DNA of 64,000 nucleotides from Parvibaculaceae bacterium (GCA_965216825.1 OZ244201.1:492629-556628); one strand, 5' to 3'; positions 10,856-57,558 are shown, counted from the first letter of the stretch. Made by a program: numbers and translations. Notes: generated from the sequence alone by a model not told the origin.

Positions 10856-12079
10856 TTATGGCGGTGTCGGCCCGGTATAGCGGGCGCGGGGACGGATCAA
10901 GCCAGGTCGTTGCTGTTGCTCGATCGCGTGGGCGATAAGCCCCGCGGTGCGTCCCAGTGCGAAAAGCGACAGGGCCGCGCCACGCGGCAGTCCAAACGTA
11001 GCGCCTATAGCGGCGAGGGCAAGGTCTACGTTGGGTTTTATCCCGGCTGCGGTCTTCATTGTCTTGATGACGGCGGAAACGCGGGCATAAGCGTCGCTGT
11101 CGCCCCGGTGTTCCTCCATGAAGCGCATCAGCATTTTCGCGCGAGGATCGCCGTCCGGGTAGAGCCAGTGGGAAAAGCCGGGCATTGGTTCCTGGTCGCG
11201 CAGGCGCTGCCGTACCGCCTCCACCGGGTCCGCTTCCGCGGAAAGGTCGCGTAAGAGGTTTTCCGTGCGCCGCGAAATGCCGCCATGCCGGGAGCCCTGC
11301 AGGGCGGCAAGACCGGCCATCACAGCGCCATAGAGCGTTGCGCCGGCCGCCGCCGTGGTGCGCGCGGTAAAGGCCGACGCATTGAGCTCGTGATCGGCAC
11401 AGAGCACCAGCGCCGCGCGAATGGCTTCGCCCGTCGTGTCGTCCTTGTTCCATGCGTGCTGCAGGACCTTGTGCACCGGTGCGGCGCTCGGGTCCGTTCC
11501 CGCGATGGTCGCGGCGACAAGGCGCAGAATACGCACGCCGGTGGCGGCCAGGCCCTCGGGTGTTGTGTTGAACAGCGTCGTGTCGGCGACCGCCGCAACC
11601 GGCAGCAGCGCGAGGCATTTGTCCACGGGCGGCAGATCGAGATCGAGGGGCGGCAGGGCGGGGGGAAGAACCTCCGACCGGAACGGGTTCGAGCCGCAAT
11701 CCCACAAAAGGGAAGCGACCGTCTCGAGCGTTGCGGTGGCCGCAAGCTGGGTGGCGTCCGACCCGCGGTAATAAAGCCGGCCGTCGGCGATCAGCGTGAT
11801 CGAGGAATCGAGCAGGGGCGGGCCGAAATTGAGGGCATAGCCCGCATCGTCCGGGGCGACTTTCGGCTCCCCGCTGCGGGCGGCGCGGCGGTCTTTCAGG
11901 CCGCGGACGTCCTCTGCGCGGTACCGCCGGGCGCGCGAGCGCGGCACCGGTTCGGAGCGGACCAGGTCGCGGCTCACATAGGCATAAAGCGTCGGCAGGC
12001 TCACGCCGAGTTCGGCCGCGGCCTCCTTTGCGGTGAGGTAAAGCGCGCCCTCATCGCCCGTATCGTCATGTCTTTTCAT
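10856..12079 (-). CDS. citrate-synthase-family protein with an N-terminal MerR/excisionase-type HTH
   Basis: The N-terminus (LTAKEAAAELGVSLPTLYAYVSRDLV) is an HTH_17-like motif. The remainder is citrate-synthase-like: ADHELNASAFTART, LQGSRHGG, GFSHWLYPDGDPRA, NVDLAL, GRTAGLIAHAIEQ. Confidence 0.8.
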   Translation of the reverse strand: MKRHDDTGDEGALYLTAKEAAAELGVSLPTLYAYVSRDLVRSEPVPRSRARRYRAEDVRGLKDRRAARSGEPKVAPDDAGYALNFGPPLLDSSITLIADGRLYYRGSDATQLAATATLETVASLLWDCGSNPFRSEVLPPALPPLDLDLPPVDKCLALLPVAAVADTTLFNTTPEGLAATGVRILRLVAATIAGTDPSAAPVHKVLQHAWNKDDTTGEAIRAALVLCADHELNASAFTARTTAAAGATLYGAVMAGLAALQGSRHGGISRRTENLLRDLSAEADPVEAVRQRLRDQEPMPGFSHWLYPDGDPRAKMLMRFMEEHRGDSDAYARVSAVIKTMKTAAGIKPNVDLALAAIGATFGLPRGAALSLFALGRTAGLIAHAIEQQQRPGLIRPRARYTGPTPP

Positions 12080-21211: not shown

Positions 21212-21391
21212 ATGCCCCTTGGCCTTTTTCGACGCGCCGACACCCCCGTCCCAAAATGCGAAAAAATACAGTTTTGTCAATGTTTTAGCTTAAAGCGCCT
21301 TTTCAATTTCCGTTAACACCCGGCGCCTAGCGTGAAGCACAGCCGGGACAGTTTGGACCGGTCCGGTCACCCGGTAGAAGGAGTTAGAGTG

Positions 21392-22150
21392 ATGGCCACG
21401 GAAATGTGCGTTCTCGCATTTGCAGCGCAGAAGGGCGGCGTCGGCAAGACCACACTTGCCGGCCATATTGCGGTCGCCGCGCATCTGGCCGGGGTTGGTC
21501 CGGTCGGTATCATCGACACCGATCCGCAGGGAAGCCTGCGCAAATGGCTGGAGGTTCGCTCGATTGAAGGGCTGAGCGAATTTTCCGCCGAGCATGGCGG
21601 CTTCGGCCCGGCCCTGCGCGAGGCAGCCGCTGCGGGCATGAAGCTGGTCATCGTCGATACGCCGCCTGCCGTGACCCGGGCCATTTCCGATGTGGTCGCG
21701 CATGCCGACCTGGTCGTGGTGCCGACCCGCCCCAGCCCGCACGACCTGCGGGCCGTCGGCCCTACCGTCGATATTGCGGAATGGCATGAAAAGCCGCTCG
21801 TCTTCGTCATCAACGGCGCCACCGCCCGCACGCGCATCACCGCGGATGCCGCCGTCGCCCTGTCGCAGCACGGGACCGTCGCCCCGGTCACGCTGCATCA
21901 TCGTGTCGATTTCGCGGCCAGCATGATCGACGGGCGCACGGTGATGGAAGCAAAGCCGGACGGGCGGAGCGCCGGCGAAGTCGAAGGTCTGTGGGCCTAT
22001 CTGGCAGACCGGATTGTCCGTCTCCAGCCGGGCGAGGGTGCCGCGGCACAGGGGCCCGCCCACGGTGATGTTTTTAGTGCCGCCGTTCCCTCGAACATGA
22101 ATGCGCTCGGTCAGCGGGCCCCCGCGTTCGGACGCCGCGCCGGCCATTGA
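21392..22150 (+). CDS. ParA/Soj-family P-loop ATPase (orphan)
   Basis: Deviant Walker A AAQKGGVGKTT and the IVDTPP motif. The ATG at 21392 follows GAAGGAG. Confidence 0.8.
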   Translation: MATEMCVLAFAAQKGGVGKTTLAGHIAVAAHLAGVGPVGIIDTDPQGSLRKWLEVRSIEGLSEFSAEHGGFGPALREAAAAGMKLVIVDTPPAVTRAISDVVAHADLVVVPTRPSPHDLRAVGPTVDIAEWHEKPLVFVINGATARTRITADAAVALSQHGTVAPVTLHHRVDFAASMIDGRTVMEAKPDGRSAGEVEGLWAYLADRIVRLQPGEGAAAQGPAHGDVFSAAVPSNMNALGQRAPAFGRRAGH

Positions 22151-22704: not shown

Positions 22705-22943
22705 GACACGCCTTTCGATCTGGGCGGGAGCGTCCGATACGGTTTCACAAATGAAAAAACGAGTGACTGCAAATCAACCGCCGAATTTCTGTAAATTCTA
22801 GTGGCGCGTTGCTTGTCTTTGTTTCAATTGCTATAAGTCACCGGCATTTAATTGGCCTGCTAATGATAATGAAGATGTCGTTCTAGCCAATATTCACGCA
22901 GAAACAAAAGTTGCAGAAGTCCAAGTTTAGCGGAGCGCGTTCA

Positions 22944-23366
22944 ATGTACGACAAGGCGGATCTGGTGGAGATGACCGCCGAGATTGTGTCAGCCTATGTA
23001 GGGAACAATAAGGTCGATGTGGCTGAGGTTCCCGCATTGATTGAGACGATTTTCCATGCGCTGATCGCTGTGGGCGGCGACACCGCGTCCGCCAGGGCGC
23101 CAAGCGCCGAACCGGCCGTGCCGGTGAAGCAGTCGATCACGCCGGACTATCTGATCTGCCTGGAAGACGGAAAGCACTTCAAGTCGCTCAAGCGTCATCT
23201 GCGCACGCATTACAACCTGTCGCCGGAGGAATACCGGCGCAAATGGGGCCTGCCGGCCGATTACCCGATGGTCGCGCCGAACTATGCCGAAGCGCGCTCG
23301 AAACTGGCCAAGAAGATGGGTCTCGGCCAGAAAGCCGGGTCCGGCCGTCCGTCGAAGCGCCGCTGA
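22944..23366 (+). CDS. mucR: MucR/Ros-family zinc-finger transcriptional regulator
   Basis: DLVEMTAEIVSAYV..PDYLICLEDGKHFKSLKRHLRTHYNLSPEEYRRKWGLPADYPMVAPNYA is the hallmark Ros/MucR sequence. Confidence 0.9.
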   Translation: MYDKADLVEMTAEIVSAYVGNNKVDVAEVPALIETIFHALIAVGGDTASARAPSAEPAVPVKQSITPDYLICLEDGKHFKSLKRHLRTHYNLSPEEYRRKWGLPADYPMVAPNYAEARSKLAKKMGLGQKAGSGRPSKRR

Positions 23367-24019: not shown

Positions 24020-25960
24020 ATGAATCCGCACACGAAACAGAATATCCTGATCGGTGCGGCAGGCGCCGTGCTGATTCTGGCCGCGGCGGTCCTGGGCTGG
24101 TTCGTTTTTGCACCGGATCGACAAACGCCGCCGCCGGTCTTTGTGGCGGAGCTGGACTCGCCGGCGACGGCGCGCCTCGACCGCGACATGCATGATGCGC
24201 TGAGGCTGCTCGACAGTCTGGAACGCGCCGGTCCGGAAGCCGAGCCGCCCTGCCAGCGATGCACTTATCTTGCGCAGACGGCAGGGGAGTACCGCCAGCT
24301 TGCGGAAGCGGCGCTTGGCGGTATCCGGCAGATCGAACGCCGCCTGTCGCGGCAGGCGGAAACGCCCGGCGACAGGCTGCCGGCAGCGGAACGGGTAACG
24401 CTTGAGCGGCGCCTGGCGGCACGGCAGCGGGCCGCCGCGCGGGCGGTTGCGGGACTGGGAAGTTTTTCGGAAGCGGTGGCGGAATGCCGCGCGGAACGTC
24501 TCTGCCGGACCGATGACGCGGAAAGGGCGGCGGACACCCGGCCTTTCGATTGCGCGCGCGACGGCGGCCTGGTGCGCCGCGCCGCCGAGCGCATCGATCT
24601 GCTCGCGGAACGGATCATCGATCATGCGCGCAGCTGCCAGACCATGTCCTGCCCAGTCATGGATTGCACGCGCTCGGCAGACCTGGCTGCCGATCTGAGG
24701 ATCGCGGAAATGTCGCTCGCCGAACTGACCGGCGGCCGCACGGCCTGGCCCGGCGGCGGCCCGCTTGCGCCCGGCTCCGGTCTCGCCACCGTCATGGGCG
24801 GCGTCGAACGGGCACTGGTCGGGCTCGCCGTGGCCTCGGGCGAGGCCGCCCTGCCGGCCGAGGAGGTGGCGGCGCGGGCCCGCGATGTGCGCAGCGGTCT
24901 TGCGACCTGGATGGCGGAGACCGAACGGCGCAAGGGCGTGCAGAAGGAAACCTGGCGGGTCAGCGCCCTGATCGCGGAGATCGACGTGGCCGCGGAGTGG
25001 GCGACGCGCGCCGGCGCACCGGAATATGAGAAGGCGTTTTTCGAAGCGCTCTCGCGCGCCATGCTGAGCGCGGCCCGGCTGGACGCGGCGCTGGCGACGG
25101 GCGAAGAGCAGGCGCAGCGAGCGGCCCGCCCCGGTCCTGTGTGCGGGGTGAGCGGACTGGCGCAGGCCTATCTCAAGATCGGCGATGCCATCGCCGCGCT
25201 CGGTTTTTGCCGCGCGAAAGCCGCCTGCCCGGCGGCGGGTGCATCTGCGATGCGTCCGCCGCGTTCCGCCAGCGATGCGGCCATCGGCGCCTTTGCCGCG
25301 GTAACCGGGGCCTTGCCGCTGGAACCCGAGCGGGCGGACGATGCCGGCGTGCGCCAGTCACGGCCGCCGGAAATCACCCTCAACCGCCAGAGCTTTATGA
25401 GCGGCGAAGTGGTGCGCGTGGCGGCCAATACCGCGCCGTCCGCCTGCCTTGCCAATGACGGTGCAATCGGGCTGGCGCCTGCCGCCGCGCCATTGGGCCG
25501 GGAGCAGCGCTATCAGCTTTCAGGCAATGCACAGTCGGAAGTCCTGCTGGCGGCGCCCGTCGATCCGGGGCTCTACAAGGTGCGGGTCTTCGCCGCGCCG
25601 GAACGCGGCGGCCAGTTGCTGAGTCAGCACGACCTGCGGGTCGAGGCATTGCCGCCCGGTTGCACAGGGTTCACGGGGGCGTGGGAGACGCAGTTCGGCG
25701 AGCTGCGCCTGGTCGAGCGCGGCGGCACTGTATCCGGCAGCTACCGGCGCACGCGCAGCGCGCCGTTGCCCGGGCTCCTGCTCGGGGACGTGTCGGGACG
25801 TACCTTGACGGGCACATGGCTGTCAGAACTCGGCCGGGGCGGAACACGGCTCCGCCTGTCGGAAAGCGGCAATCGCTTCCGGGGGACGTGGGGCGTTACG
25901 CCGGACCGTCTGGACGGCGGCGGACGCTGGGACGGGGACTGTCTCGGCGGTCTGCACTAG
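24020..25960 (+). CDS. large membrane-anchored hypothetical protein (646 aa)
   Basis: One N-terminal TM helix (ILIGAAGAVLILAAAVLGWFVF), a long Ala/Glu/Arg-rich helical region, and a C-terminal beta-type region with repeated G.W..G..L motifs. No family was recognised. Confidence 0.6.
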   Translation: MNPHTKQNILIGAAGAVLILAAAVLGWFVFAPDRQTPPPVFVAELDSPATARLDRDMHDALRLLDSLERAGPEAEPPCQRCTYLAQTAGEYRQLAEAALGGIRQIERRLSRQAETPGDRLPAAERVTLERRLAARQRAAARAVAGLGSFSEAVAECRAERLCRTDDAERAADTRPFDCARDGGLVRRAAERIDLLAERIIDHARSCQTMSCPVMDCTRSADLAADLRIAEMSLAELTGGRTAWPGGGPLAPGSGLATVMGGVERALVGLAVASGEAALPAEEVAARARDVRSGLATWMAETERRKGVQKETWRVSALIAEIDVAAEWATRAGAPEYEKAFFEALSRAMLSAARLDAALATGEEQAQRAARPGPVCGVSGLAQAYLKIGDAIAALGFCRAKAACPAAGASAMRPPRSASDAAIGAFAAVTGALPLEPERADDAGVRQSRPPEITLNRQSFMSGEVVRVAANTAPSACLANDGAIGLAPAAAPLGREQRYQLSGNAQSEVLLAAPVDPGLYKVRVFAAPERGGQLLSQHDLRVEALPPGCTGFTGAWETQFGELRLVERGGTVSGSYRRTRSAPLPGLLLGDVSGRTLTGTWLSELGRGGTRLRLSESGNRFRGTWGVTPDRLDGGGRWDGDCLGGLH

Positions 25961-26257
25961 CGGCAAGCCGCGCCGCAATCTGCGAGAGTGCCGCGGCATG
26001 GACCGCCGGCGAATGGGCCCAGTGGTTCGCGCTTTTCAGGCGGATCTGTGCGCGCAGCCGCGCGCACAGGCACTCAAAGGGGAGAGGAACGGCCGGCGCC
26101 GTCTTTGCCCCGGCGCGCACCCATCTCCGCCAGGCCCGGCGGCTGGCGGCGGCGAGCGCGGACAATTCCGGGTCTGTTGGAGGCATGCCGGTCATCCGGC
26201 AAGTATGCGTGCACCCGGGCCGGTGGGGAGTAGTTTACAGGATACGCAAAACGCAAA

Positions 26258-26830
26258 TCAGTAATAACGGACCGACATGACGATCGGCGCGCACCACTGT
26301 ACCCGGTCGACATAGCGGACATCCGCTTGCGGGCCGATGGGAACCAGGCCGTAACGCGGGCCGCTTTTCGGTCCGCGGATGAGGCGTCGGAGAAACAGCT
26401 TCCCCCCTTTCAGGCCGACGAAACAGTCCCGGTCGAGGGCTGCCGAAAGGTCGCCATCGTCCATCCGGTCCCCGATCAGGATATCGCCGGCGGCGTAGGC
26501 GCCGAGTGCCTGCTGGAGCCGTGCGGCGACCGGGCGGGCGGCGGGGACATGGAGCTTGAAGCCTGCGCTTTGGTGTATTTTCTGGTCAGTGACGGTTCCG
26601 TCCGCACCGATGCGCCCGAGCATTTCGATGCGCTCCGGTGACGGCTCGTCGATCAGGTCCGACATCTGAACCTGCAGGATTTCGGCAAGCGGTTCCAGCC
26701 AGTCGACCGACACCTTGATGCCCTCCGTTTCCAGCCGGGAAATAGTCGCAGCGGTCGTTCCGAGACTCTCGGCGAGGTCGGTCTGTGTCAGGCCCTTCAG
26801 CCGTCGGTAGTGGCGAATTCTGTTTCTCAC
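26258..26830 (-). CDS. XRE-family HTH regulator with a cI/LexA (S24)-like C-terminal domain
   Basis: N-terminal HTH IRHYRRLKGLTQTDLAESLGTTAATISRLETEG. The C-terminal part AGDILIGDRM..CFVGLKGGKLFLRRLI..LVPIGP resembles the S24 fold, but no G-S-M Ser motif is evident and Arg sits where the Lys is expected. Confidence 0.7.
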   Translation of the reverse strand: MRNRIRHYRRLKGLTQTDLAESLGTTAATISRLETEGIKVSVDWLEPLAEILQVQMSDLIDEPSPERIEMLGRIGADGTVTDQKIHQSAGFKLHVPAARPVAARLQQALGAYAAGDILIGDRMDDGDLSAALDRDCFVGLKGGKLFLRRLIRGPKSGPRYGLVPIGPQADVRYVDRVQWCAPIVMSVRYY

Positions 26831-26997
26831 GATCCTTGTCTCTCAATTGCATCGCTGCCGTGCAGTTTACGCCGGGGTCTCGAAAATATTACATAAAACG
26901 TAAATTTTATTCCCGGGGTTCTGCTTTGCGCTTATATGTAGGGTCTGTCCCAGATCGAAGGCTCGCGGCCGCAACCGAGGCCGCACAGGAGGTGAGA

Positions 26998-27441
26998 ATG
27001 CCCCAGATGTCCCAGATTTCCACGAACATGCCGGGTACGTATGCCTACAGGACGCCCCGGCAGGGTAGTTTGACCACAAAGGCGGCGGCGAAACGAGAGG
27101 CGATGCGTGCGCGCCAGGCCGCTGATGTGAAGCTCATCTGTAACGCCGTTGCCAGAGCTTACAACATTCCGGCCGATATGCTTCAGGCGCCGACCCGCGG
27201 CGAGGCACACGTTGCCCGCGCCCGGCAGGTCGCCATGTATCTGGCCCATGTGGCTTTCGGCATGAGCCTCGGGGCGGTGGGCCGCCAGTTCGACCGCGAC
27301 CGCACGACCGCAGCCTATGCCTGCCGCCAGATCGAGGATCTGCGGGACGAGGGCGGGTTCGATTTTCTTCTGGAACGGCTGGAAAGTGCCCTGTCCGCCC
27401 TCTACCGGGCACGGGCCGGCAGCCGCCCGGCACAGCGTTAG
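26998..27441 (+). CDS. DnaA-domain-IV-like HTH protein (GafY / GafA N-terminal-like candidate)
   Basis: TRGEAHVARARQVAMYLAHVAFGMSLGAVGRQFDRDRTTAAYACRQIEDLR matches the DnaA C-terminal DNA-binding motif (R..aRq.AMYL...S...IG..f.rdhtT). The ATG at 26998 follows AGGAGGTGA. Confidence 0.7.
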   Translation: MPQMSQISTNMPGTYAYRTPRQGSLTTKAAAKREAMRARQAADVKLICNAVARAYNIPADMLQAPTRGEAHVARARQVAMYLAHVAFGMSLGAVGRQFDRDRTTAAYACRQIEDLRDEGGFDFLLERLESALSALYRARAGSRPAQR

Positions 27442-27469
27442 AAGCGGAAAAGCCAGCAGGAGAGGGCGC

Positions 27470-28345
27470 ATGACGATTGCGGCAGGTGAATTGAGACGCG
27501 AAGGCATCCGGCTTTTTCGCCGCCTGAGAGAACCGGGATATTTCCTGCGGCCGTTGAGCGGGGAGCCCGAAAGCATAGGCCTGTTCGGCCCGCGCAACCG
27601 CTGGGCGCGGCCGGTGATGAAGCTGGACCGCACGATTGTCGAAGCGCTGCACCGGGCCGACCTGCTGGTGGAAACGGCTGCGCCGGACGCCGCTGGCGAG
27701 GAGGACGCCGTCCTGCAAGTGAGTGCCGCCGGCGAAGCATGGTGGCGGCGGCAGACCGGCGGACAGGAGGCGTTCCAGGCGCAGCACCGGCTCATGGGCC
27801 GCGCCACGATCGACGAACCGGGCCGCGGACCGGTGAGCCGCGAGGTGAACCTGGGCGAATCGCCGCTCGGCTGGCTCAGCCGCCGGAAGGGGCCGGACGG
27901 CCGGGCGTTTCTCACACCCGCCGAGGTCGAGGCAGGCGAGCGCCTGCGCCGGGATTTTACCCTGGGCCGGTTGAATGCGCGCGTCACGGCGGACTGGACC
28001 GGCATGATGGCACATGTCGACCGGAGCCGCGGCCTGCCGCGGGACGGGGCCGATGTTCCGGCAGCCGCTCTGGATGCGCGGCGCAGGACCGAAAACGCGC
28101 TCGCTGCGGTGGGGCCCGGACTGGGCGATATTCTCGTGGAAACCTGTTGCCACCTGACCGGCATCGAACAGGCCGAACGCGCATTGGGCTGGCCGCAACG
28201 CTCGGCGAAGATTGTTCTGAAAATCGCACTCGACCGGCTGGCCGGACATTACGGCCTGAAGCAGGGCGGGGCGCCGGGACGCAAGGTCCATGTCTGGCGG
28301 CGTGAGGGGGAGGGCGCGGACGGCGCTTCCGGTCAGTCCGTGTGA
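27470..28345 (+). CDS. DUF6456-like protein (GafZ / GafA C-terminal-like candidate)
   Basis: ESPLGWLSRRKGPDGRAFLTPAEVEAGERLRRDF motif and a C-terminal HTH-like segment (ERALGWPQRSAKIVLKIALDRLAGHYGL). The ATG at 27470 follows AGGAGAGGG, 28 nt after the upstream stop. Confidence 0.6.
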   Translation: MTIAAGELRREGIRLFRRLREPGYFLRPLSGEPESIGLFGPRNRWARPVMKLDRTIVEALHRADLLVETAAPDAAGEEDAVLQVSAAGEAWWRRQTGGQEAFQAQHRLMGRATIDEPGRGPVSREVNLGESPLGWLSRRKGPDGRAFLTPAEVEAGERLRRDFTLGRLNARVTADWTGMMAHVDRSRGLPRDGADVPAAALDARRRTENALAAVGPGLGDILVETCCHLTGIEQAERALGWPQRSAKIVLKIALDRLAGHYGLKQGGAPGRKVHVWRREGEGADGASGQSV

Positions 28346-51873: not shown

Positions 51874-51874
51874 A

Positions 51875-51889
51875 TTGCGGAAAATGCAA
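51875..51889. promoter_or_regulatory. inverted-repeat motif TTGCG-N5-TGCAA upstream of GTA g1
   Basis: Read from the sequence. It lies in a low-GC region between ycgN and g1 and is related to the second copy at 51997. Confidence 0.35.
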
Positions 51890-51996
51890 GAGGTGCACTT
51901 GAAACAGTGCGCTCCAAACCCATTTCAAATCCATCTCCGGAATTGCATAAACATTTGAAGCGACGTGGTTTGAGAAGTCACGGTGTGTGGCAGAAT

Positions 51997-52011
51997 TTGC
52001 AAAAAATGCAA
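51997..52011. promoter_or_regulatory. inverted-repeat motif TTGCA-AAAAA-TGCAA immediately upstream of a TTGACA hexamer
   Basis: Perfect 5-bp arms. TTGACA at 52021..52026 follows, about 50 nt before the g1 ATG. Confidence 0.4.
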
Positions 52012-52074
52012 ATACTGATCTTGACATCGTAACGCCCGGTCCCATCTACTTAACCATCTCCGAAAGTATGCGCG

Positions 52075-52665
52075 ATGCAGAATGACGATCCCTCAAAGGG
52101 CCGGCCTCCTGATCGGTCTTGCGAAGACGCTTGCCTGACGCCGGAAGACTGGGACCGGATCGAACAGGCCTATCGGGGAAGCGAGCCGCTGGCGGACGTT
52201 GGCGCGCGGTACGGCATCACGATGCAGAAGATCGTGGCGCATGCCCGGCGCGAGGACTGGCCGCTCCGCGGCGCGCGGAAGACGAAAACCCTCCGCGGGG
52301 CCGGGCGTGCGCACAAGACGAAGCAGGCGAGTGCGGCCGCGCTCATGAAACGGCTCACCCGCCTTGTGGAACAACAGATCGACGACATTGAAAAACGGTT
52401 GAAGCGGAAGGCGGCATCGCAGGATCACGAACGGGATGCCCGCACACTCTCCAACCTGACCCGCACCCTCGACAAGCTGATCGAGCTGAAACGCACGGCC
52501 GACGCGGACAGGGCGGCGCGGGCCCGCGCGAAACGGGACGACAGGAAAGCCACAGGGAGCGACAGGGATGAAGACGCGCTCCGCGCCGAGCTGGCGGGCC
52601 GCCTGGCTCGCCTCGCAGCCGCCGGAAACCGTGACGGCGTTTCTGGACAGTCTGAACGAAACTGA
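52075..52665 (+). CDS. GTA g1-like protein (putative small terminase: HTH plus basic coiled coil)
   Basis: First gene of the cluster. N-terminal HTH-like LADVGARYGITMQKIVAHARREDW, then a Lys/Arg/Glu/Asp-rich helical tail. Confidence 0.6.
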   Translation: MQNDDPSKGRPPDRSCEDACLTPEDWDRIEQAYRGSEPLADVGARYGITMQKIVAHARREDWPLRGARKTKTLRGAGRAHKTKQASAAALMKRLTRLVEQQIDDIEKRLKRKAASQDHERDARTLSNLTRTLDKLIELKRTADADRAARARAKRDDRKATGSDRDEDALRAELAGRLARLAAAGNRDGVSGQSERN

Positions 52666-53872
52666 ACTTGGCTTTCTGAAGCACGACTGGCGCTTCTGGG
52701 CCCGGGCCCCGCAATGGCCGCCGGACGGCGACTGGACGACCTGGCTCATCCTGGGCGGGCGCGGCGCGGGCAAGACCCGCGCGGGCGCCGAATGGGTCCG
52801 CCGGCAGGTGCGCACGGGCAGGGCCGCGCATATCGCCCTTGTCGGCGAAGACTATGCGGATGCGCGTGAGGTCATGGTGGACGGGACGTCCGGTCTCGCC
52901 GCCCTCGGCCCGGCGGAGGAACGGCCCCGGTTCGAGCCGACGCGCCGGCGGCTCGTCTGGCCGAACGGGGCGGTTGCCACGCTCTTTTCCGCGAGCGATC
53001 CGGAAGCGCTGCGCGGTCCGCAATTCGATGCGGCCTGGTGCGACGAGGCGGGCAAGTGGCCGGACGCGGAAAGCGCCTGGGCCATGCTGCAATTCGGCCT
53101 GCGGCTGGGTGAACGGCCCCGTCAGGTGGTGACCACCACGCCGCGCGCCGTGCCCCTGGTCAGGAAACTGCTCGCGGACCGGCAGGTGAGGGTGAGCCGC
53201 ACGGCGACCTATGACAATCGCGCCAACCTGGCGGACGCGTTTTTCTCGACCGTCATCCGGACCTATGAAGGAACCCGGCTCGGGCGGCAGGAGCTGGACG
53301 GCGATCTTCTGGAAGACGATCCGGATGCGCTCTGGTCGCGCGCTATGATCGAACGCGCCCGCGTGCGGGTTGCGCCGGACTGTGTGCGTATTGTCGTCGG
53401 CGTGGACCCGCCGGCAAGTTCCGGCGGCAGCGCGGATGAATGCGGCATTGTCGCCGCGGGGGAGGGCGTTGACGGGCTCATCTATGTGCTGGCCGACCGC
53501 TCCCGCCCGCGCGCGAAACCGGCCGGCTGGGCCCGGCGCGTCGCGGCACTTTATGAACAGGTAAAGGCCGACCGTGTCGTTGCCGAGGTCAACCAGGGCG
53601 GCGAGATGGTCGCCAGCGTGCTTCACCAGGTGGCGCCTCACTTGCCGGTCCGGCAGGTGCGGGCCACGCGCTCGAAACGGGTGCGTGCCGAACCGGTCGC
53701 CGCCCTTTACGAGCAGGGCCGCGTCCGCCATGCGGGTCTGTTCGCGGAACTGGAAGACCAGATGTGCACGTTTACCGGCAAGGGCAAAAGCCCCGACCGG
53801 CTGGACGCGCTCGTCTGGGCGGTGAGCGACCTGATGCGCACCGCCGGCGACCCCGCCATCCGGCGGCTTTGA
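52568..53872 (+). CDS. GTA g2-like terminase large subunit
   Basis: WLILGGRGAGKTRAGAEWV (Walker A-like), IALVGEDYADAREVMV and a C-terminal nuclease part. Conserved residues begin close to the 52568 start, giving a 98-nt overlap with g1. Confidence 0.85.
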   Translation: MKTRSAPSWRAAWLASQPPETVTAFLDSLNETELGFLKHDWRFWARAPQWPPDGDWTTWLILGGRGAGKTRAGAEWVRRQVRTGRAAHIALVGEDYADAREVMVDGTSGLAALGPAEERPRFEPTRRRLVWPNGAVATLFSASDPEALRGPQFDAAWCDEAGKWPDAESAWAMLQFGLRLGERPRQVVTTTPRAVPLVRKLLADRQVRVSRTATYDNRANLADAFFSTVIRTYEGTRLGRQELDGDLLEDDPDALWSRAMIERARVRVAPDCVRIVVGVDPPASSGGSADECGIVAAGEGVDGLIYVLADRSRPRAKPAGWARRVAALYEQVKADRVVAEVNQGGEMVASVLHQVAPHLPVRQVRATRSKRVRAEPVAALYEQGRVRHAGLFAELEDQMCTFTGKGKSPDRLDALVWAVSDLMRTAGDPAIRRL

Positions 53873-53905
53873 CGCGGCCACGACATAACCGAAACGGGAA
53901 CCCGA

Positions 53906-55087
53906 ATGACCGAACAGCCAAACCTGTTGCGGCGCCTTTTCGGCGCGCGTGCCCCGCTGGAAGAAAAGGCAAGCGCCGCGCGCTCGCTGATCGCGCTCTC
54001 GACGCTGGGCCGGCCGGTCTGGACGCCCCGCGATTACGACCGGCTGGCGCGCGAAGCCTATGAACAGAACGCGGTCGCCTTCCGCTGTGTGCGCATGATC
54101 GCGGAAGCCGCGGCCAGTGTGCCGTGGCTGCTTTATGAAGGCGGCCGCGAGCATGACCGGCATCCGCTGCTCTCGCTCCTTGCCCGGCCGAATCCGGTGG
54201 AAGGCGGCGCGGACCTGATGGAAGCCTGGTACGGCTACCTGCAGGTGGCGGGCAATGCCTATCTCGAAGCGGTGCAGGTAGGCGGCGAGGTGCGCGAGCT
54301 TTATGCGCTCCGGCCCGACCGGATGAAAGTGGTGCCGGGTGCGCGCGGCTGGCCGGAGGCGTACGAATATGCGGTGAACGGGCGCACGCTCGTTTTCCGG
54401 GAGGAACCCGACCGGCCGATCCTGCACATGAAGGCCTTCCACCCGACGGACGATCATTACGGCCTGTCGCCGCTGGAAGCCGCCGCCCGTGCGGTGGACA
54501 TTCACAATGCCGCGGGCGCCTGGAACAAGGCCCTGCTCGACAATGCGGCCCGGCCGTCCGGCGCGCTTGTCTACAAGGGGCAGGACGGGGCGGGCACGCT
54601 CACCGAAGACCAGTTCGACCGCCTGAAGCGGGAACTGGAGGAGAATTATTCCGGCTCGGCCAATGCGGGCCGTCCGCTCTTGCTCGAAGGCGGGCTGGAC
54701 TGGCAGCAGATGGGACTGGGGCCGCGCGATCTCGACTTCAACGAGGCGAAGAACGCGGCGGCCCGCGACATCGCTCTGGCCTTCGGCGTGCCGCCCATGC
54801 TGCTCGGCATTCCGGGCGACAACACGTTTTCGAATTACAGGGAAGCGAACCTTGTCTTCTGGCGCCAGACGGTCGTGCCGCTGGTGCGCAAGACAGCGAC
54901 GGCGCTCACCCGCTGGCTTGGGCCCCGCTTCGGGCAGGACCTGATCCTCGGCGTGGATCTCGACGGCGTCCCCGCCCTCGGGGCGGAGCGCGATGGTCTC
55001 TGGGCGCGGGTAAGGGACGCGGACTTTCTCACCGACGACGAGAAACGCGCGGCGGTCGGCTATGGCCGGAGAGAGGGTGGGACATGA
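53906..55087 (+). CDS. GTA g3-like portal protein (HK97 family)
   Basis: 393 aa with AFRCVRMIAEAAASVPW..LLARPNP..YLQVAGNAYLE..LSPLEAA portal motifs. Confidence 0.9.
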   Translation: MTEQPNLLRRLFGARAPLEEKASAARSLIALSTLGRPVWTPRDYDRLAREAYEQNAVAFRCVRMIAEAAASVPWLLYEGGREHDRHPLLSLLARPNPVEGGADLMEAWYGYLQVAGNAYLEAVQVGGEVRELYALRPDRMKVVPGARGWPEAYEYAVNGRTLVFREEPDRPILHMKAFHPTDDHYGLSPLEAAARAVDIHNAAGAWNKALLDNAARPSGALVYKGQDGAGTLTEDQFDRLKRELEENYSGSANAGRPLLLEGGLDWQQMGLGPRDLDFNEAKNAAARDIALAFGVPPMLLGIPGDNTFSNYREANLVFWRQTVVPLVRKTATALTRWLGPRFGQDLILGVDLDGVPALGAERDGLWARVRDADFLTDDEKRAAVGYGRREGGT

Positions 55088-55347
55088 GCGGCCCGGAACC
55101 GGAAACCCGCTGGCATCTGGACAAGCGGGTGCCCATCGCGCTGATCGTGGCGATCCTCATCCAGACGGCGGGCGCACTCACCTGGGCGGGCGCGGCGTCG
55201 GAACGGATCAACCAGCTGGAGCGCCAGGTGACCGGCGGCAGCGACCTGGGCGAACGCACGGCCCGCCTCGAAGTGCAGGCGGTCTATATGCGCGCCGCCC
55301 TCGACCGGATTGAAGACAAGCTCGACCGTGCCATCGCGCGGGAGTGA
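55084..55347 (+). CDS. GTA g3.5-like small membrane protein
   Basis: 87 aa with one TM helix (VPIALIVAILIQTAGALTWAG) and a coiled-coil tail. It has a 4-nt overlap with the portal gene stop. Confidence 0.65.
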   Translation: MSGPEPETRWHLDKRVPIALIVAILIQTAGALTWAGAASERINQLERQVTGGSDLGERTARLEVQAVYMRAALDRIEDKLDRAIARE

Positions 55348-55367
55348 TCGACACTCTTTAACACAAT

Positions 55368-55459
55368 CGTCATTGCCGGGCTTGTCCCGGCAATCCAGGG
55401 CAACAGGCGGAAGCCTGAGCGCGTAGCCTCTGGACCCCCGGAACAAGTCCGGGGGTGAC
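55368..55459. repeat. pair of inverted REP-like hairpin elements (GTCA-stem-CTTGT-stem-TCC family)
   Basis: Hairpin 1 is ATTGCCGGG-CTTGT-CCCGGCAAT (55372..55394). Hairpin 2 is CCCCCGGA-ACAAG-TCCGGGGG (55435..55455) in opposite orientation. The flanks GTCA/TGAC and TCC/GGA mirror each other. Confidence 0.6.
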
Positions 55460-55484
55460 ACCCACCAATTGGAACAAAACCCGT

Positions 55485-56207
55485 ATGAATGAACGATGGA
55501 CTCCTCCGCCCCTCTTTGGGGAGCGGAAAGCGCACCCCCATGCCCGCGAAACCAAGCGTGCCGCCTTCGATATTGCCCATGTCGACGACACGGGCGCGTT
55601 CGAAGGCTATGCCAGCCTCTTCGGCGCGGAGGATCTGGGTCACGACCTGGTGCTGCGCGGCGCCTTCGAGGCGAGCCTGGCCAAGCGCGGCGCGTCCGGC
55701 GTGCGGATGCTCTTCCAGCACGATCCGGCCGACCCGATCGGCGCGTGGGATGAAATCCGCGAGGACGAGGAAGGTCTTTATGTCCGGGGCCGCCTGACGC
55801 TCGACGTCGGCCGCGCCCGCGAAATCCACGCCCTGATGAAAGCAGGCGCGCTGGACGGGCTTTCCATCGGCTTCCACACCGTCAAGGCCGTGCGTGACCG
55901 TCTCACCGGTATCCGTCAGCTCATCGAAATCGATCTCTGGGAAATTTCCGTGGTCACGTTTCCGATGCAGCCCGGTGCCCGCGTGCGCGCGGTCAAGACG
56001 GTCCCGCCCTTTTCGAGACTTCCGACGGAACGGGATCTCGAACGCCGGCTCCTGCGGGATGCAGGACTGAGCCGGCACCAGGCCCGCGCGCTGATTGCGG
56101 GCGGTTACAAGGCGCTGTCAGGCCCGCGGGACGCGGGCGGTGCCGGCCCCGATCTGGCGCATCTCGCCCGGACCATCCGGTCCGCCGGCGCGCGCTTTCT
56201 TTTCTGA
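55485..56207 (+). CDS. GTA g4-like prohead protease (HK97 / S78 family)
   Basis: GAFEGYASLFGAEDLGHDLVLRGAF..RMLFQHD..LSIGF..EISVVTFPMQ motifs. The start (55485 ATG or 55455 GTG) is uncertain. Confidence 0.85.
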   Translation: MNERWTPPPLFGERKAHPHARETKRAAFDIAHVDDTGAFEGYASLFGAEDLGHDLVLRGAFEASLAKRGASGVRMLFQHDPADPIGAWDEIREDEEGLYVRGRLTLDVGRAREIHALMKAGALDGLSIGFHTVKAVRDRLTGIRQLIEIDLWEISVVTFPMQPGARVRAVKTVPPFSRLPTERDLERRLLRDAGLSRHQARALIAGGYKALSGPRDAGGAGPDLAHLARTIRSAGARFLF

Positions 56208-56241
56208 CCCCGACCTTCGACGTCAACCCAAGGAGACCAGC

Positions 56242-57558
56242 ATGCCTCTCATCCGAGAGAACGAACCCGGCCGCGTGGGCCATTCCATGCGCGGCACGGC
56301 GCCCGCCCCGGGACTGGAACGCAAGAGTGCCGAGCAGGGCGCGTCCGCCGTGCGCGACGTACGCCAGGCCTTCGACGAATTCATGACCCGCTTCGATGCC
56401 TTCAAGCAGGCGAACGACGACCGCCTTGCACAGGTCGAGCGGAAACTGTCCGCCGATGTCGTGACGGTGGAAAAGGTCGACCGGCTGAATGCCGCCCTCG
56501 ACCTCCAGCAGAAGACCGTCGACGGTCTGGCCCTGTCGCTCAGCCGCCCGGAACTCGGGGGATCGCCGTCTGTCGATCCGCAGGCCCGCGAACACAAGTC
56601 CGCGTTCGACCGGTATGTGCGGCGGGGCGAGATCGCCACGTTGCGCGCGCTGGAAGAAAAGGCGCTGGCGGTGCAGTCAGACCCGGACGGCGGCTATCTC
56701 GTGCCCGCCGAGACGGAACGGCTGATCGACCGGACGGTCTCGGAAGCCTCGCCCATCCGCGCCATCGCCGGTGTCCGCCAGATCGGCGCGGCGTCCTACA
56801 AGAAACCGTTCGCCACGGCGGGCGCGGCAACCGGCTGGGTCGGCGAGACCGAACCGCGCACCGAAACGGACAGCCCGAAGATCGCCGAGCTCGAATTCCC
56901 GGTGATGGAGCTTTACGCCATGCCGGCAGCGACCTCGACCCTGCTCGACGATGCCGCGGTCAATATCGACCAGTGGATCGCGGAAGAAGTGCAGACCGCC
57001 TTTGCCGAACAGGAAGGCGCCGCCTTCGTGCAGGGCGACGGCGTGCGCAAGCCGCGCGGCTTTCTCTCCTACCCGGCGATTGGCAACGCCTCCTGGGTGT
57101 GGGGCAAGCTCGGTTATGTCGCGACCGGCGAGGCGGGGGCCTTTCCCGCGACCGCACCCTCCGACGTGCTGCTCGACCTCGTCTACTCGGTGAAGTCCGG
57201 CTACCGCGCCAACGCGCATTTCGTCATGAACCGGCAGACGCAGGCGCAGATCCGCAAGTTCAAGGATGCCGACGGCAATTACCTCTGGCAGCCGAGCCTC
57301 ACCGCGGGCGACGCACCGCGTCTCATGAACGTGCCGGTTGCCGAGGCCGAAGACATGCCGGATGTGGCCGCCGACAGTTTTGCCATTGCGTACGGCGACT
57401 TCCGGCGCGGGTACCTGATCGTCGACCGGCTGGGCATCCGCGTGCTGCGCGATCCCTACACCGCGAAACCCTACGTCCTGTTCTACACGACCAAGCGTGT
57501 GGGCGGCGGCGTTCAGAACTTCGAAGCGATCAAGCTTCTGAAATTCGGCACGGCTTAA
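56242..57558 (+). CDS. GTA g5-like major capsid protein (HK97 fold)
   Basis: An N-terminal delta-domain-like coiled coil precedes DPDGGYLVP..ELEFPVMELYA..KPRGFL..NYLWQPS motifs. The ATG at 56242 follows AAGGAGA. Confidence 0.9.
   Translation: MPLIRENEPGRVGHSMRGTAPAPGLERKSAEQGASAVRDVRQAFDEFMTRFDAFKQANDDRLAQVERKLSADVVTVEKVDRLNAALDLQQKTVDGLALSLSRPELGGSPSVDPQAREHKSAFDRYVRRGEIATLRALEEKALAVQSDPDGGYLVPAETERLIDRTVSEASPIRAIAGVRQIGAASYKKPFATAGAATGWVGETEPRTETDSPKIAELEFPVMELYAMPAATSTLLDDAAVNIDQWIAEEVQTAFAEQEGAAFVQGDGVRKPRGFLSYPAIGNASWVWGKLGYVATGEAGAFPATAPSDVLLDLVYSVKSGYRANAHFVMNRQTQAQIRKFKDADGNYLWQPSLTAGDAPRLMNVPVAEAEDMPDVAADSFAIAYGDFRRGYLIVDRLGIRVLRDPYTAKPYVLFYTTKRVGGGVQNFEAIKLLKFGTA

Follow-up and report, generated by a model that had tools for sequence, protein, structure and literature searches.

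A candidate repressor of a gafYZ-like operon in a Parvibaculaceae bacterium: a protein of LexA/lambda cI architecture without the S24 catalytic residues

A stretch of 64 000 nucleotides from a Parvibaculaceae bacterium (GCA_965216825.1, OZ244201.1:492629-556628; referred to below, at its full length, as the window) was analysed with regard to a repressor-like gene that is transcribed divergently from a gafYZ-like operon, the putative activator operon of a gene transfer agent (GTA). The two are separated by an intergenic region of 167 bp (26831..26997), in which a short palindrome is conserved among relatives. The coordinates of all features are collated in Table 1.

Table 1. Features of the window discussed in this study.
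Feature	Position	Strand	Remarks
Repressor-like gene	26258..26830	(-)	190 aa, GTG start (open reading frame calling)
Helix-turn-helix (HTH) domain of the repressor-like protein	26654..26821	(-)	aa 4-59; Pfam HTH_3/HTH_31/HTH_26
S24-like beta domain of the repressor-like protein	26261..26635	(-)	aa ~66-190; AlphaFold (AF2) model and Foldseek
Dyad O1, TTACA-TAAAA-CGTAA	26889..26903		59-73 nt before repressor-like gene start, 95-109 nt before gafY ATG
Dyad O2, TTACA-GGATA-CGCAA	26235..26249		9-23 nt past repressor-like gene stop, between two convergent genes
Dyad TTGCG-GAAAA-TGCAA	51875..51889		immediately follows the stop of the preceding gene; within the 201 bp that lead up to the first GTA gene
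Dyad TTGCA-AAAAA-TGCAA	51997..52011		followed 10 bp downstream by a perfect TTGACA hexamer (52021..52026); precedes the GTA cluster
TTGCA-N9-TGCAG element	26847..26865		plus TTACG half-site 26867..26871
G-rich box TTTATTCCC (reverse complement GGGAATAAA)	26906..26914		adjoins O1; degenerate in the window
Conserved block CTTATATGTA	26931..26940	(+)	between O1 and gafY; TACATATAAG in 10/13 aligned relatives
gafY-like gene	26998..27441	(+)	147 aa, DnaA domain IV-type HTH; Pfam Bac_DnaA_C 1.2e-17
gafZ-like gene	27470..28345	(+)	291 aa from likely ATG 27470, DUF6456; Pfam 1.8e-51
Start of RcGTA-type head-tail cluster	52075..57558	(+)	Pfam/PHROG/terminase relatives
GTA small terminase	52075..52665	(+)	PHROG
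GTA large terminase	52568..53872	(+)	284 GTA-type terminase relatives
GTA portal	53906..55087	(+)	Pfam Phage_portal 7e-92
GTA capsid	within 56095..57558	(+)	Pfam Phage_capsid 2e-92

The repressor-like protein and its S24-like domain

A first-pass annotation of the locus, made without database searches, had described a 190-aa protein with a Cro/C1-type HTH and a C-terminal domain (CTD) resembling peptidase S24, and this description was borne out by the open reading frame, by Pfam (HTH) and by Foldseek (cI/LexA). The peptides AGDILIGDRM, GGKLFLRRLI and LVPIGP are all present in the translation. The N-terminal HTH is of the five-helix Cro/C1 type (PF01381; HTH_3 1.3e-9, HTH_31 3e-10), with PDB profile matches to SinR and the 434 repressor and with helices at residues 5-59 in the model. 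For the C-terminal 125 residues no Pfam or NCBIfam family was found with either the full protein or the CTD alone as the query, and Pfam gave no PF00717 (Peptidase_S24) match at E<=10. In sequence-profile searches of the PDB the full-length profile returned HTH matches only and the CTD profile returned none, and in searches of PHROGs and GenBank phages the HTH alone was matched.

The fold of the CTD was assigned from AlphaFold models, with predicted local distance difference test (pLDDT) scores of 85 for the full-length protein and 87 for the CTD alone, the latter with a predicted template modelling (pTM) score of 0.83. When the CTD-only model was compared with the PDB by Foldseek, the best eight matches were the lambda cI CTD or the LexA CTD (probability 1.00, TM score 0.51-0.67), the ninth falling to E 0.1. 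The full-length model matched full-length lambda cI as well as the C-domains of LexA and cI. A cupin reading (HTH plus cupin, as in HppE) was rejected as an artefact of the two-domain query, the HppE matches vanishing with the CTD-only model. On the evidence of the models, the CTD is a homologue of the LexA/lambda cI S24 domain.

A profile built from the CTD only was then searched against 1.84 billion representatives. The matches fell into 376 clusters at 50% identity, nearly all of ~185-195 aa with a common layout and mostly from Parvibaculaceae and their neighbours. Of 27 of the more distant matches, 24 carry HTH_3 and 10 are recognised by Pfam Peptidase_S24 (best E 6e-12); through the latter the S24 homology of the CTD is also supported transitively.

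The catalytic positions were read from alignments to LexA, cI, the RogA family (see below) and intact S24 relatives. The residue numbers given for LexA and cI are the textbook ones. In LexA the nucleophile is S119 and the cleavage site is A84-G85; the general base is K156 in LexA and K192 in cI. Four independent alignments place R148 of the repressor-like protein at the position of the Lys. S119 has L109 or a short deletion opposite it, the G-x-S-M motif is absent, and A76-D77 aligns with A84-G85, so that the scissile Ala-Gly bond is not present. In the 197 unique, same-length family members the column of position 148 reads R97/G70/A21/T3/C3/H1 and never Lys (0/197); position 109 is I/V/L/F/M/H, with no conserved Ser at 103-113; positions 76 and 77 vary (R/A/G and D/G/N); and nowhere in the S24-like domain is a Ser, Lys or His conserved. 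D135, C136, R122 and R149 are highly conserved across the family, and G72 and G78 in the linker strand are invariant. The earlier claim that the Ser-Lys dyad is missing, with Arg in place of Lys, was thus confirmed and, as judged from the alignments, the Ser nucleophile, the Lys base and the Ala-Gly cleavage site have all been lost. RecA-stimulated self-cleavage is not expected because all three are missing, and we infer that the protein is non-cleavable.

The nearest CTD relatives outside the family are prophage XRE-S24 repressors of alphaproteobacteria (P0345, P0348, P0326; E 1e-10 to 1e-13 to the CTD profile), which share the motifs R-D-C-x-V and E-W-A-A-P-V with the family and are likewise divergent from the operon that they face. 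They differ from it in that the catalytic dyad is kept and in that they lie in prophage early regions, not beside gafYZ and sufE. G-D-S-M and the Lys are retained in the distant relatives P0345, P0348, P0362, P0379, P0389 and P0326, and several such intact relatives are found in prophage-like loci, where they face runs of small early genes on the opposite strand. Because the intact relatives are prophage repressors facing small early genes, the phage-style ancestry is considered real, and the repressor-like protein looks like a dead and domesticated offshoot of prophage cI-type repressors.

Linkage to gafYZ and the elements of the intergenic region

The synteny of the locus was scanned with one genome per species (78 loci, mostly from Parvibaculaceae, Parvibaculum and 'Rhodobiaceae' metagenome-assembled genomes (MAGs), together with a Rhodospirillales MAG, Sphingobium and Pontixanthobacter). 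Among the carriers are Parvibaculum indicum DSM 25305 (L056) and P. sedimenti HXT-9 (L024). The gafY-like and gafZ-like genes were found immediately upstream on the opposite strand in ~70 of the 78 loci, the exceptions being mostly contigs that end there, and sufE follows gafZ in 65 loci. A metagenomic relative of 95% identity (L084) has the identical gene order. The divergent arrangement with a DnaA domain IV-like gene that had been reported for the window is therefore both supported by the Bac_DnaA_C match and kept in most of the genomes scanned. Judging by gene order, the module is vertically inherited and chromosomal rather than a recent insertion.

In the window, sufE is the next gene after the gafZ-like gene, and the 291-aa gafZ gene call recurs in L084. 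GafA homologues are annotated as DUF6456, and in Hyphomicrobiales a small DnaA-like gene lies ahead of gafA and sufE comes after it (PMC9638019). By domain content and order, the neighbours of the repressor-like gene are an operon of the gafY/gafZ split-activator type in a GTA-carrying genome.

The dyad O1 is the invariant core of the best-conserved block of the intergenic alignment and belongs to a 15-bp family consensus, TTRCR-N5-YGYAA. O1 contains the TTAC-N7-GTAA dyad of the first-pass annotation, which has proved to be a conserved, operator-like palindrome at a fixed position in the relatives. Among 79 related upstream regions the strict pattern was found in 32 and a relaxed pattern in 56; the dyad is ~27-fold enriched relative to the remainder of these loci, with its sites clustering at -72 from the start of the repressor-like gene. 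L084 reads TTGCG-TTTTA-TGCAA where the window reads TTACG..TGTAA on that strand, a mirror-symmetric double change among about ten differences in the region.

Five matches to the dyad pattern occur in the window, versus 0.63 expected. O2 is kept at +8..+10 after the stop in 12/12 of the closest relatives and in L084 (13/13). For the dyads in front of the GTA cluster, L089 was the sole informative relative, the IMG/VR contigs mostly beginning at the terminase; in this single close relative with enough upstream DNA, the dyad at 51875 is kept as TTGCA-GAAAA-TGCAA and the dyad at 51997 is not kept as a full dyad. No dyad was found upstream of 21 more distant GTA clusters. The limitation of the GTA-cluster dyad to the window and its closest relative fits a lineage-restricted factor, and the conservation of O2 at a non-promoter position is easier to reconcile with an architectural site for a repressor than with a site for an activator. 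The match at 11731, which has a GC-rich spacer and probably lies inside a gene, was treated as a chance occurrence. Besides its two dyads and the TTGACA hexamer, the region 51874..52074 contains a repeated CCATCTCCG motif (~51933 and 52054) that is kept in L089.

Further elements surround O1. The TTGCA-N9-TGCAG element of the first-pass annotation is present, and it and the TTACG half-site beside it amount to additional TTRCR half-sites, spaced at 20-22 bp from one another and from O1. Its status as a conserved dyad was rejected: the clade conserves the TTGCA half only (TGCAA/TGCAG on the other strand), beside a conserved TGAGAGA block. The G-rich box reads GGGGGTAAA or GGGGATAA in relatives and takes the form of a perfect DnaA box, TGTGGATAA, in distant ones. 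GGGGRTAA occurs in 51/79 related upstream regions (73-fold enriched) and [GT]GGATAA in 51/78, and the perfect DnaA box TGTGGATAA (TTATCCACA) occurs in 8/78 (L019, L034, L039, L055, L057, L059, L068, L075). Either the DnaA-IV-like GafY or DnaA itself could plausibly bind at this DnaA-box-like element. The block CTTATATGTA may be a -10-like element or an accessory-factor site of the gafYZ promoter. No usable sigma-70 consensus was found by scanning the intergenic region (one match overlaps a start codon) or the GTA promoter, and an Rfam search of 25900..27500 returned no RNA family.

An SOS/LexA box, GAAC-N7-GAAC, stands between the repressor-like gene and gafY in 26/79 related loci (222-fold enriched), at ~-110 from the start of the repressor-like gene (-111 in L044) and 40-50 nt before the gafY start. 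These loci belong to the Parvibaculum-type clade (among L013-L077), and the sequence is absent from the window. GAAC-N7-GAAC is the alphaproteobacterial SOS box (PMC9578287), and its placement points to LexA acting directly on gafYZ in genomes of the Parvibaculum type.

Other genes of the neighbourhood were recorded as side observations. The GafY-like and GafZ-like proteins both match phrog_31864 (profile positions 4-63 and 254-302, respectively), and therefore some phages encode a fused GafA-like protein. A 646-aa protein without Pfam or PHROG match is encoded at 24020..25960 (+), convergent with the repressor-like gene; the 12 closest relatives have it at full length, its C-terminal ~190 aa are kept downstream of the repressor-like gene in 27 loci, and the gene may belong to the repressor-gafYZ module. 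Within a few kb of the locus there are genes for a ParA/MipZ-like ATPase (21332..22150) and for a MucR/Ros regulator (22911..23366), as well as a small gene. MucR adjoins gafA in the synteny of Hyphomicrobiales, and in Rhodobacter capsulatus rcc01866, a gene of unknown function, is divergent from gafA, its mutation giving immature, non-lysing GTA producers (PMC9638019).

Proposed control of gafYZ and comparison with RogA

The closest published counterpart is RogA (CCNA_00080) of Caulobacter crescentus, which consists of an HTH and a catalytically dead S24 domain, directly represses gafYZ and silences the GTA (Gozzi et al. 2022, PMC9632790). Its operator is a pair of GGAA-N4-TTCC repeats in the gafYZ core promoter (PMC9632790), and gafY is derepressed ~350-fold upon deletion of rogA (PMC11150451). 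The concept of a dead-S24 repressor of gafYZ is thus already published; the present analysis adds the conserved linkage, a candidate operator present at three places and the LexA boxes of sister clades.

For comparison, a RogA sequence was obtained from a metagenome contig (L079). Its two ends agree with the published cloning primers, and the protein recovered (213 aa, MATLSHGEIW...IVWVSQ) is 93% identical to its best database cluster. RogA and the window protein share the combination of an HTH with an S24-like domain devoid of catalytic residues, the Arg at the Lys position (VLVREL in RogA, LFLRRL in the window protein), a C-terminal W-x-A-(P/R)-I-V motif, and the association with a split gafY/gafZ activator of an RcGTA-type GTA. 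In profile-profile comparison with the RogA family a probability of 80% was obtained at full length (E 1e-5, 171 columns) and of 33% for the CTD alone. There are also differences. No BLASTP similarity was detected between the two proteins (E 1.5); RogA matches Pfam Peptidase_S24 at 3e-17, whereas the window CTD gives no match at E<=10; the HTH of RogA is of the Xre-like/CI-repressor type with an insertion, whereas that of the window protein is a classical HTH_3; and the operator 2x GGAA-N4-TTCC contrasts with the candidate TTRCR-N5-YGYAA, GGAA-N4-TTCC being absent from the entire window. In addition, rogA is unlinked to gafYZ (no gafYZ was found near rogA loci, and no RogA-type gene in the window), in contrast to the divergent linkage described above. 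Orthology with RogA was rejected, BLASTP being empty and the profile similarity remote. The window protein is best regarded, on sequence grounds, as a remote homologue of RogA outside the RogA family and, by inference, as its functional analogue. The first-pass annotation had considered the layout unlike that of Caulobacter; RogA, a like concept, was overlooked there, but the claim holds for the protein family, the operator sequence and the linkage to gafYZ.

Within the RogA family (among P0225, P0234 and P0239 versus P0128) some members keep GDSM and the Lys, some lack the Ser only, and the C. crescentus type lacks both. Loss of the autoprotease looks stepwise and recent in that family, and it is probably separate from the loss in the window family.

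Other known systems resemble the locus in part. With lambda cI, LexA and UmuD (MEROPS S24) the window protein shares the CTD fold and the order HTH, linker, beta domain, and as with lambda cI the gene is divergent from its presumed target operon and flanked by candidate operators, which recalls OL and OR; it differs from these proteins in the absence of the Ser, the Lys and the Ala-Gly site, and in that its CTD matches no PDB chain by sequence. In Hyphomicrobiales an uncharacterised HTH-containing gene upstream of DnaA-like/gafA appears in a synteny figure of Sherlock and Fogg (2022; PMC9638019). The order regulator, DnaA-like gene, gafA (DUF6456), sufE is the same.

On this basis the repressor-like gene is proposed, with a probability of roughly 60%, to encode a local repressor of gafYZ that acts through dimeric binding to the palindrome. 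A dimer held together by the S24-like domain would bind TTRCR-N5-YGYAA in the 167-bp region common to both genes and would keep the operon of the GTA master activator shut, and probably its own gene as well. Since palindromes also occur past its stop codon and in front of the GTA cluster, binding may be cooperative or involve a DNA loop, and the structural promoter may be held directly as well. With the autoprotease residues lost, RecA-stimulated self-cleavage is not expected to be the means of induction; relief would come by another route, such as a ligand, an antirepressor, proteolysis in trans, dilution or out-competition by GafY. The RogA precedent, with its like architecture, dead site and repression of gafYZ, counts in favour of the proposal. 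Of the phage-style switch put forward in the first-pass annotation, the regulator of cI/LexA architecture with prophage ancestry that faces gafYZ was recovered, and the repression of gafYZ stays at the level of a proposal.

Several observations weigh against it. No consensus promoter was found against which the dyads could be positioned. O1 and the 51997 dyad lie, in our reading, just upstream of -35-like hexamers, a position that is also typical of activators. The dyad in front of the GTA cluster was compared in one relative (L089), and the window copy of the G-rich box is degenerate. Presence of the dyad tracks the type of recognition helix (TTAAT 46/56, TTPQT 9/16, TTAQT 0/6), an association that is confounded by phylogeny and is suggestive only. 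Lastly, the factor bound at both the gafYZ and the GTA promoters of Caulobacter is GafY, the targets of RogA being the gafYZ promoter and CCNA_02002 (PMC9632790, PMC11150451), so that a motif common to both promoters here could be that of GafY.

A more far-reaching form of the proposal, which we regard as doubtful, is that a lambda-like immunity circuit was domesticated whole for the GTA, with one non-cleavable repressor and with the SOS input outsourced to LexA. The operators flanking the repressor-like gene, ~650 bp apart, would then be occupied cooperatively or in a loop, and the repressor would in addition occupy the GTA structural promoter, at a distance of 25 kb, gating both the activator operon and the head-tail cluster; damage sensing, lost with the autoprotease, would have been regained in sister lineages through the LexA box.

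The argument from GafY leads to an alternative that we consider unlikely, in which the palindromes are sites of GafY or of another host factor that auto-activates gafYZ and activates the GTA cluster, while the XRE/S24-like protein binds elsewhere nearby (for example at the G-rich box) or regulates itself only. The window dyads do stand at exactly the two promoter regions bound by GafY in Caulobacter, and O1 and the 51997 dyad lie upstream of -35-like hexamers. The domain IV of DnaA, however, binds asymmetric 9-mers as a monomer, and a perfect dyad of 15 bp whose half-site centres are separated by 10 bp suits a dimeric XRE repressor such as the 434 and P22 repressors; the geometry of the palindrome is of that type, and the separate DnaA-box-like element (GGGGATAA or TGTGGATAA) would suit GafY better. 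Moreover, O2 lies between two convergent gene ends, where it has no obvious use for an activator, and the 21 other GTA clusters that lack the dyad all depend on activators of the GafA/GafYZ type.

Less probable again is an activating or dual role, comparable to that of lambda cI at PRM, in which the protein would stimulate gafYZ and the GTA promoter instead of acting as a brake on GTA production. Proteins of the cI type can activate from just upstream of -35, no overlap of dyad and promoter could be shown, and the dyad centres fall ~45-55 bp upstream of where we would place the transcription starts, although these promoter positions are guesses. RogA, the closest functional precedent at a like target operon, is a repressor with ~350-fold derepression of gafY upon its loss, the intact relatives of the window protein are prophage immunity repressors, and a constitutive, linked activator would be hard to reconcile with the tight silencing of a process that kills its producer.

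Least likely of all is a stress-triggered switch in which the repressor is still proteolysed, by a protease in trans (ImmA/IrrE-like, Lon, ClpXP) or through non-canonical residues of the cleft: XRE repressors are cut by partner proteases in the pairs ImmR/ImmA and DdrO/IrrE, the linker strand matching the LexA cleavage-site region is retained with its invariant G72 and G78, and D135, C136, R122 and R149 are highly conserved, but no protease-like gene (ImmA/IrrE-like included) was called in the conserved neighbourhood, the Ala-Gly is not conserved (Ala-Asp in the window), and D135-C136 and W179-x-A181 are common to the intact prophage relatives, which suggests a structural role and not a new active site.

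Implications for GTA control

Production of a GTA kills the producing cell, and the switch that silences GafYZ is for this reason a key control point. How repression of the RogA type is relieved is an acknowledged gap in the Caulobacter papers. The family described here is a second one of the dead-S24 design, hard-wired beside gafYZ, and its locus offers a candidate operator that recurs at the GTA promoter and past the end of the repressor-like gene. It also provides a comparative handle on the rewiring of phage immunity modules during GTA domestication. If both families did lose catalysis independently, this would argue that non-cleavability has been selected for in GTA control; and if the whole-circuit form of the proposal were true, it would represent an evolutionary outsourcing of the SOS input from self-cleavage of the repressor to LexA.

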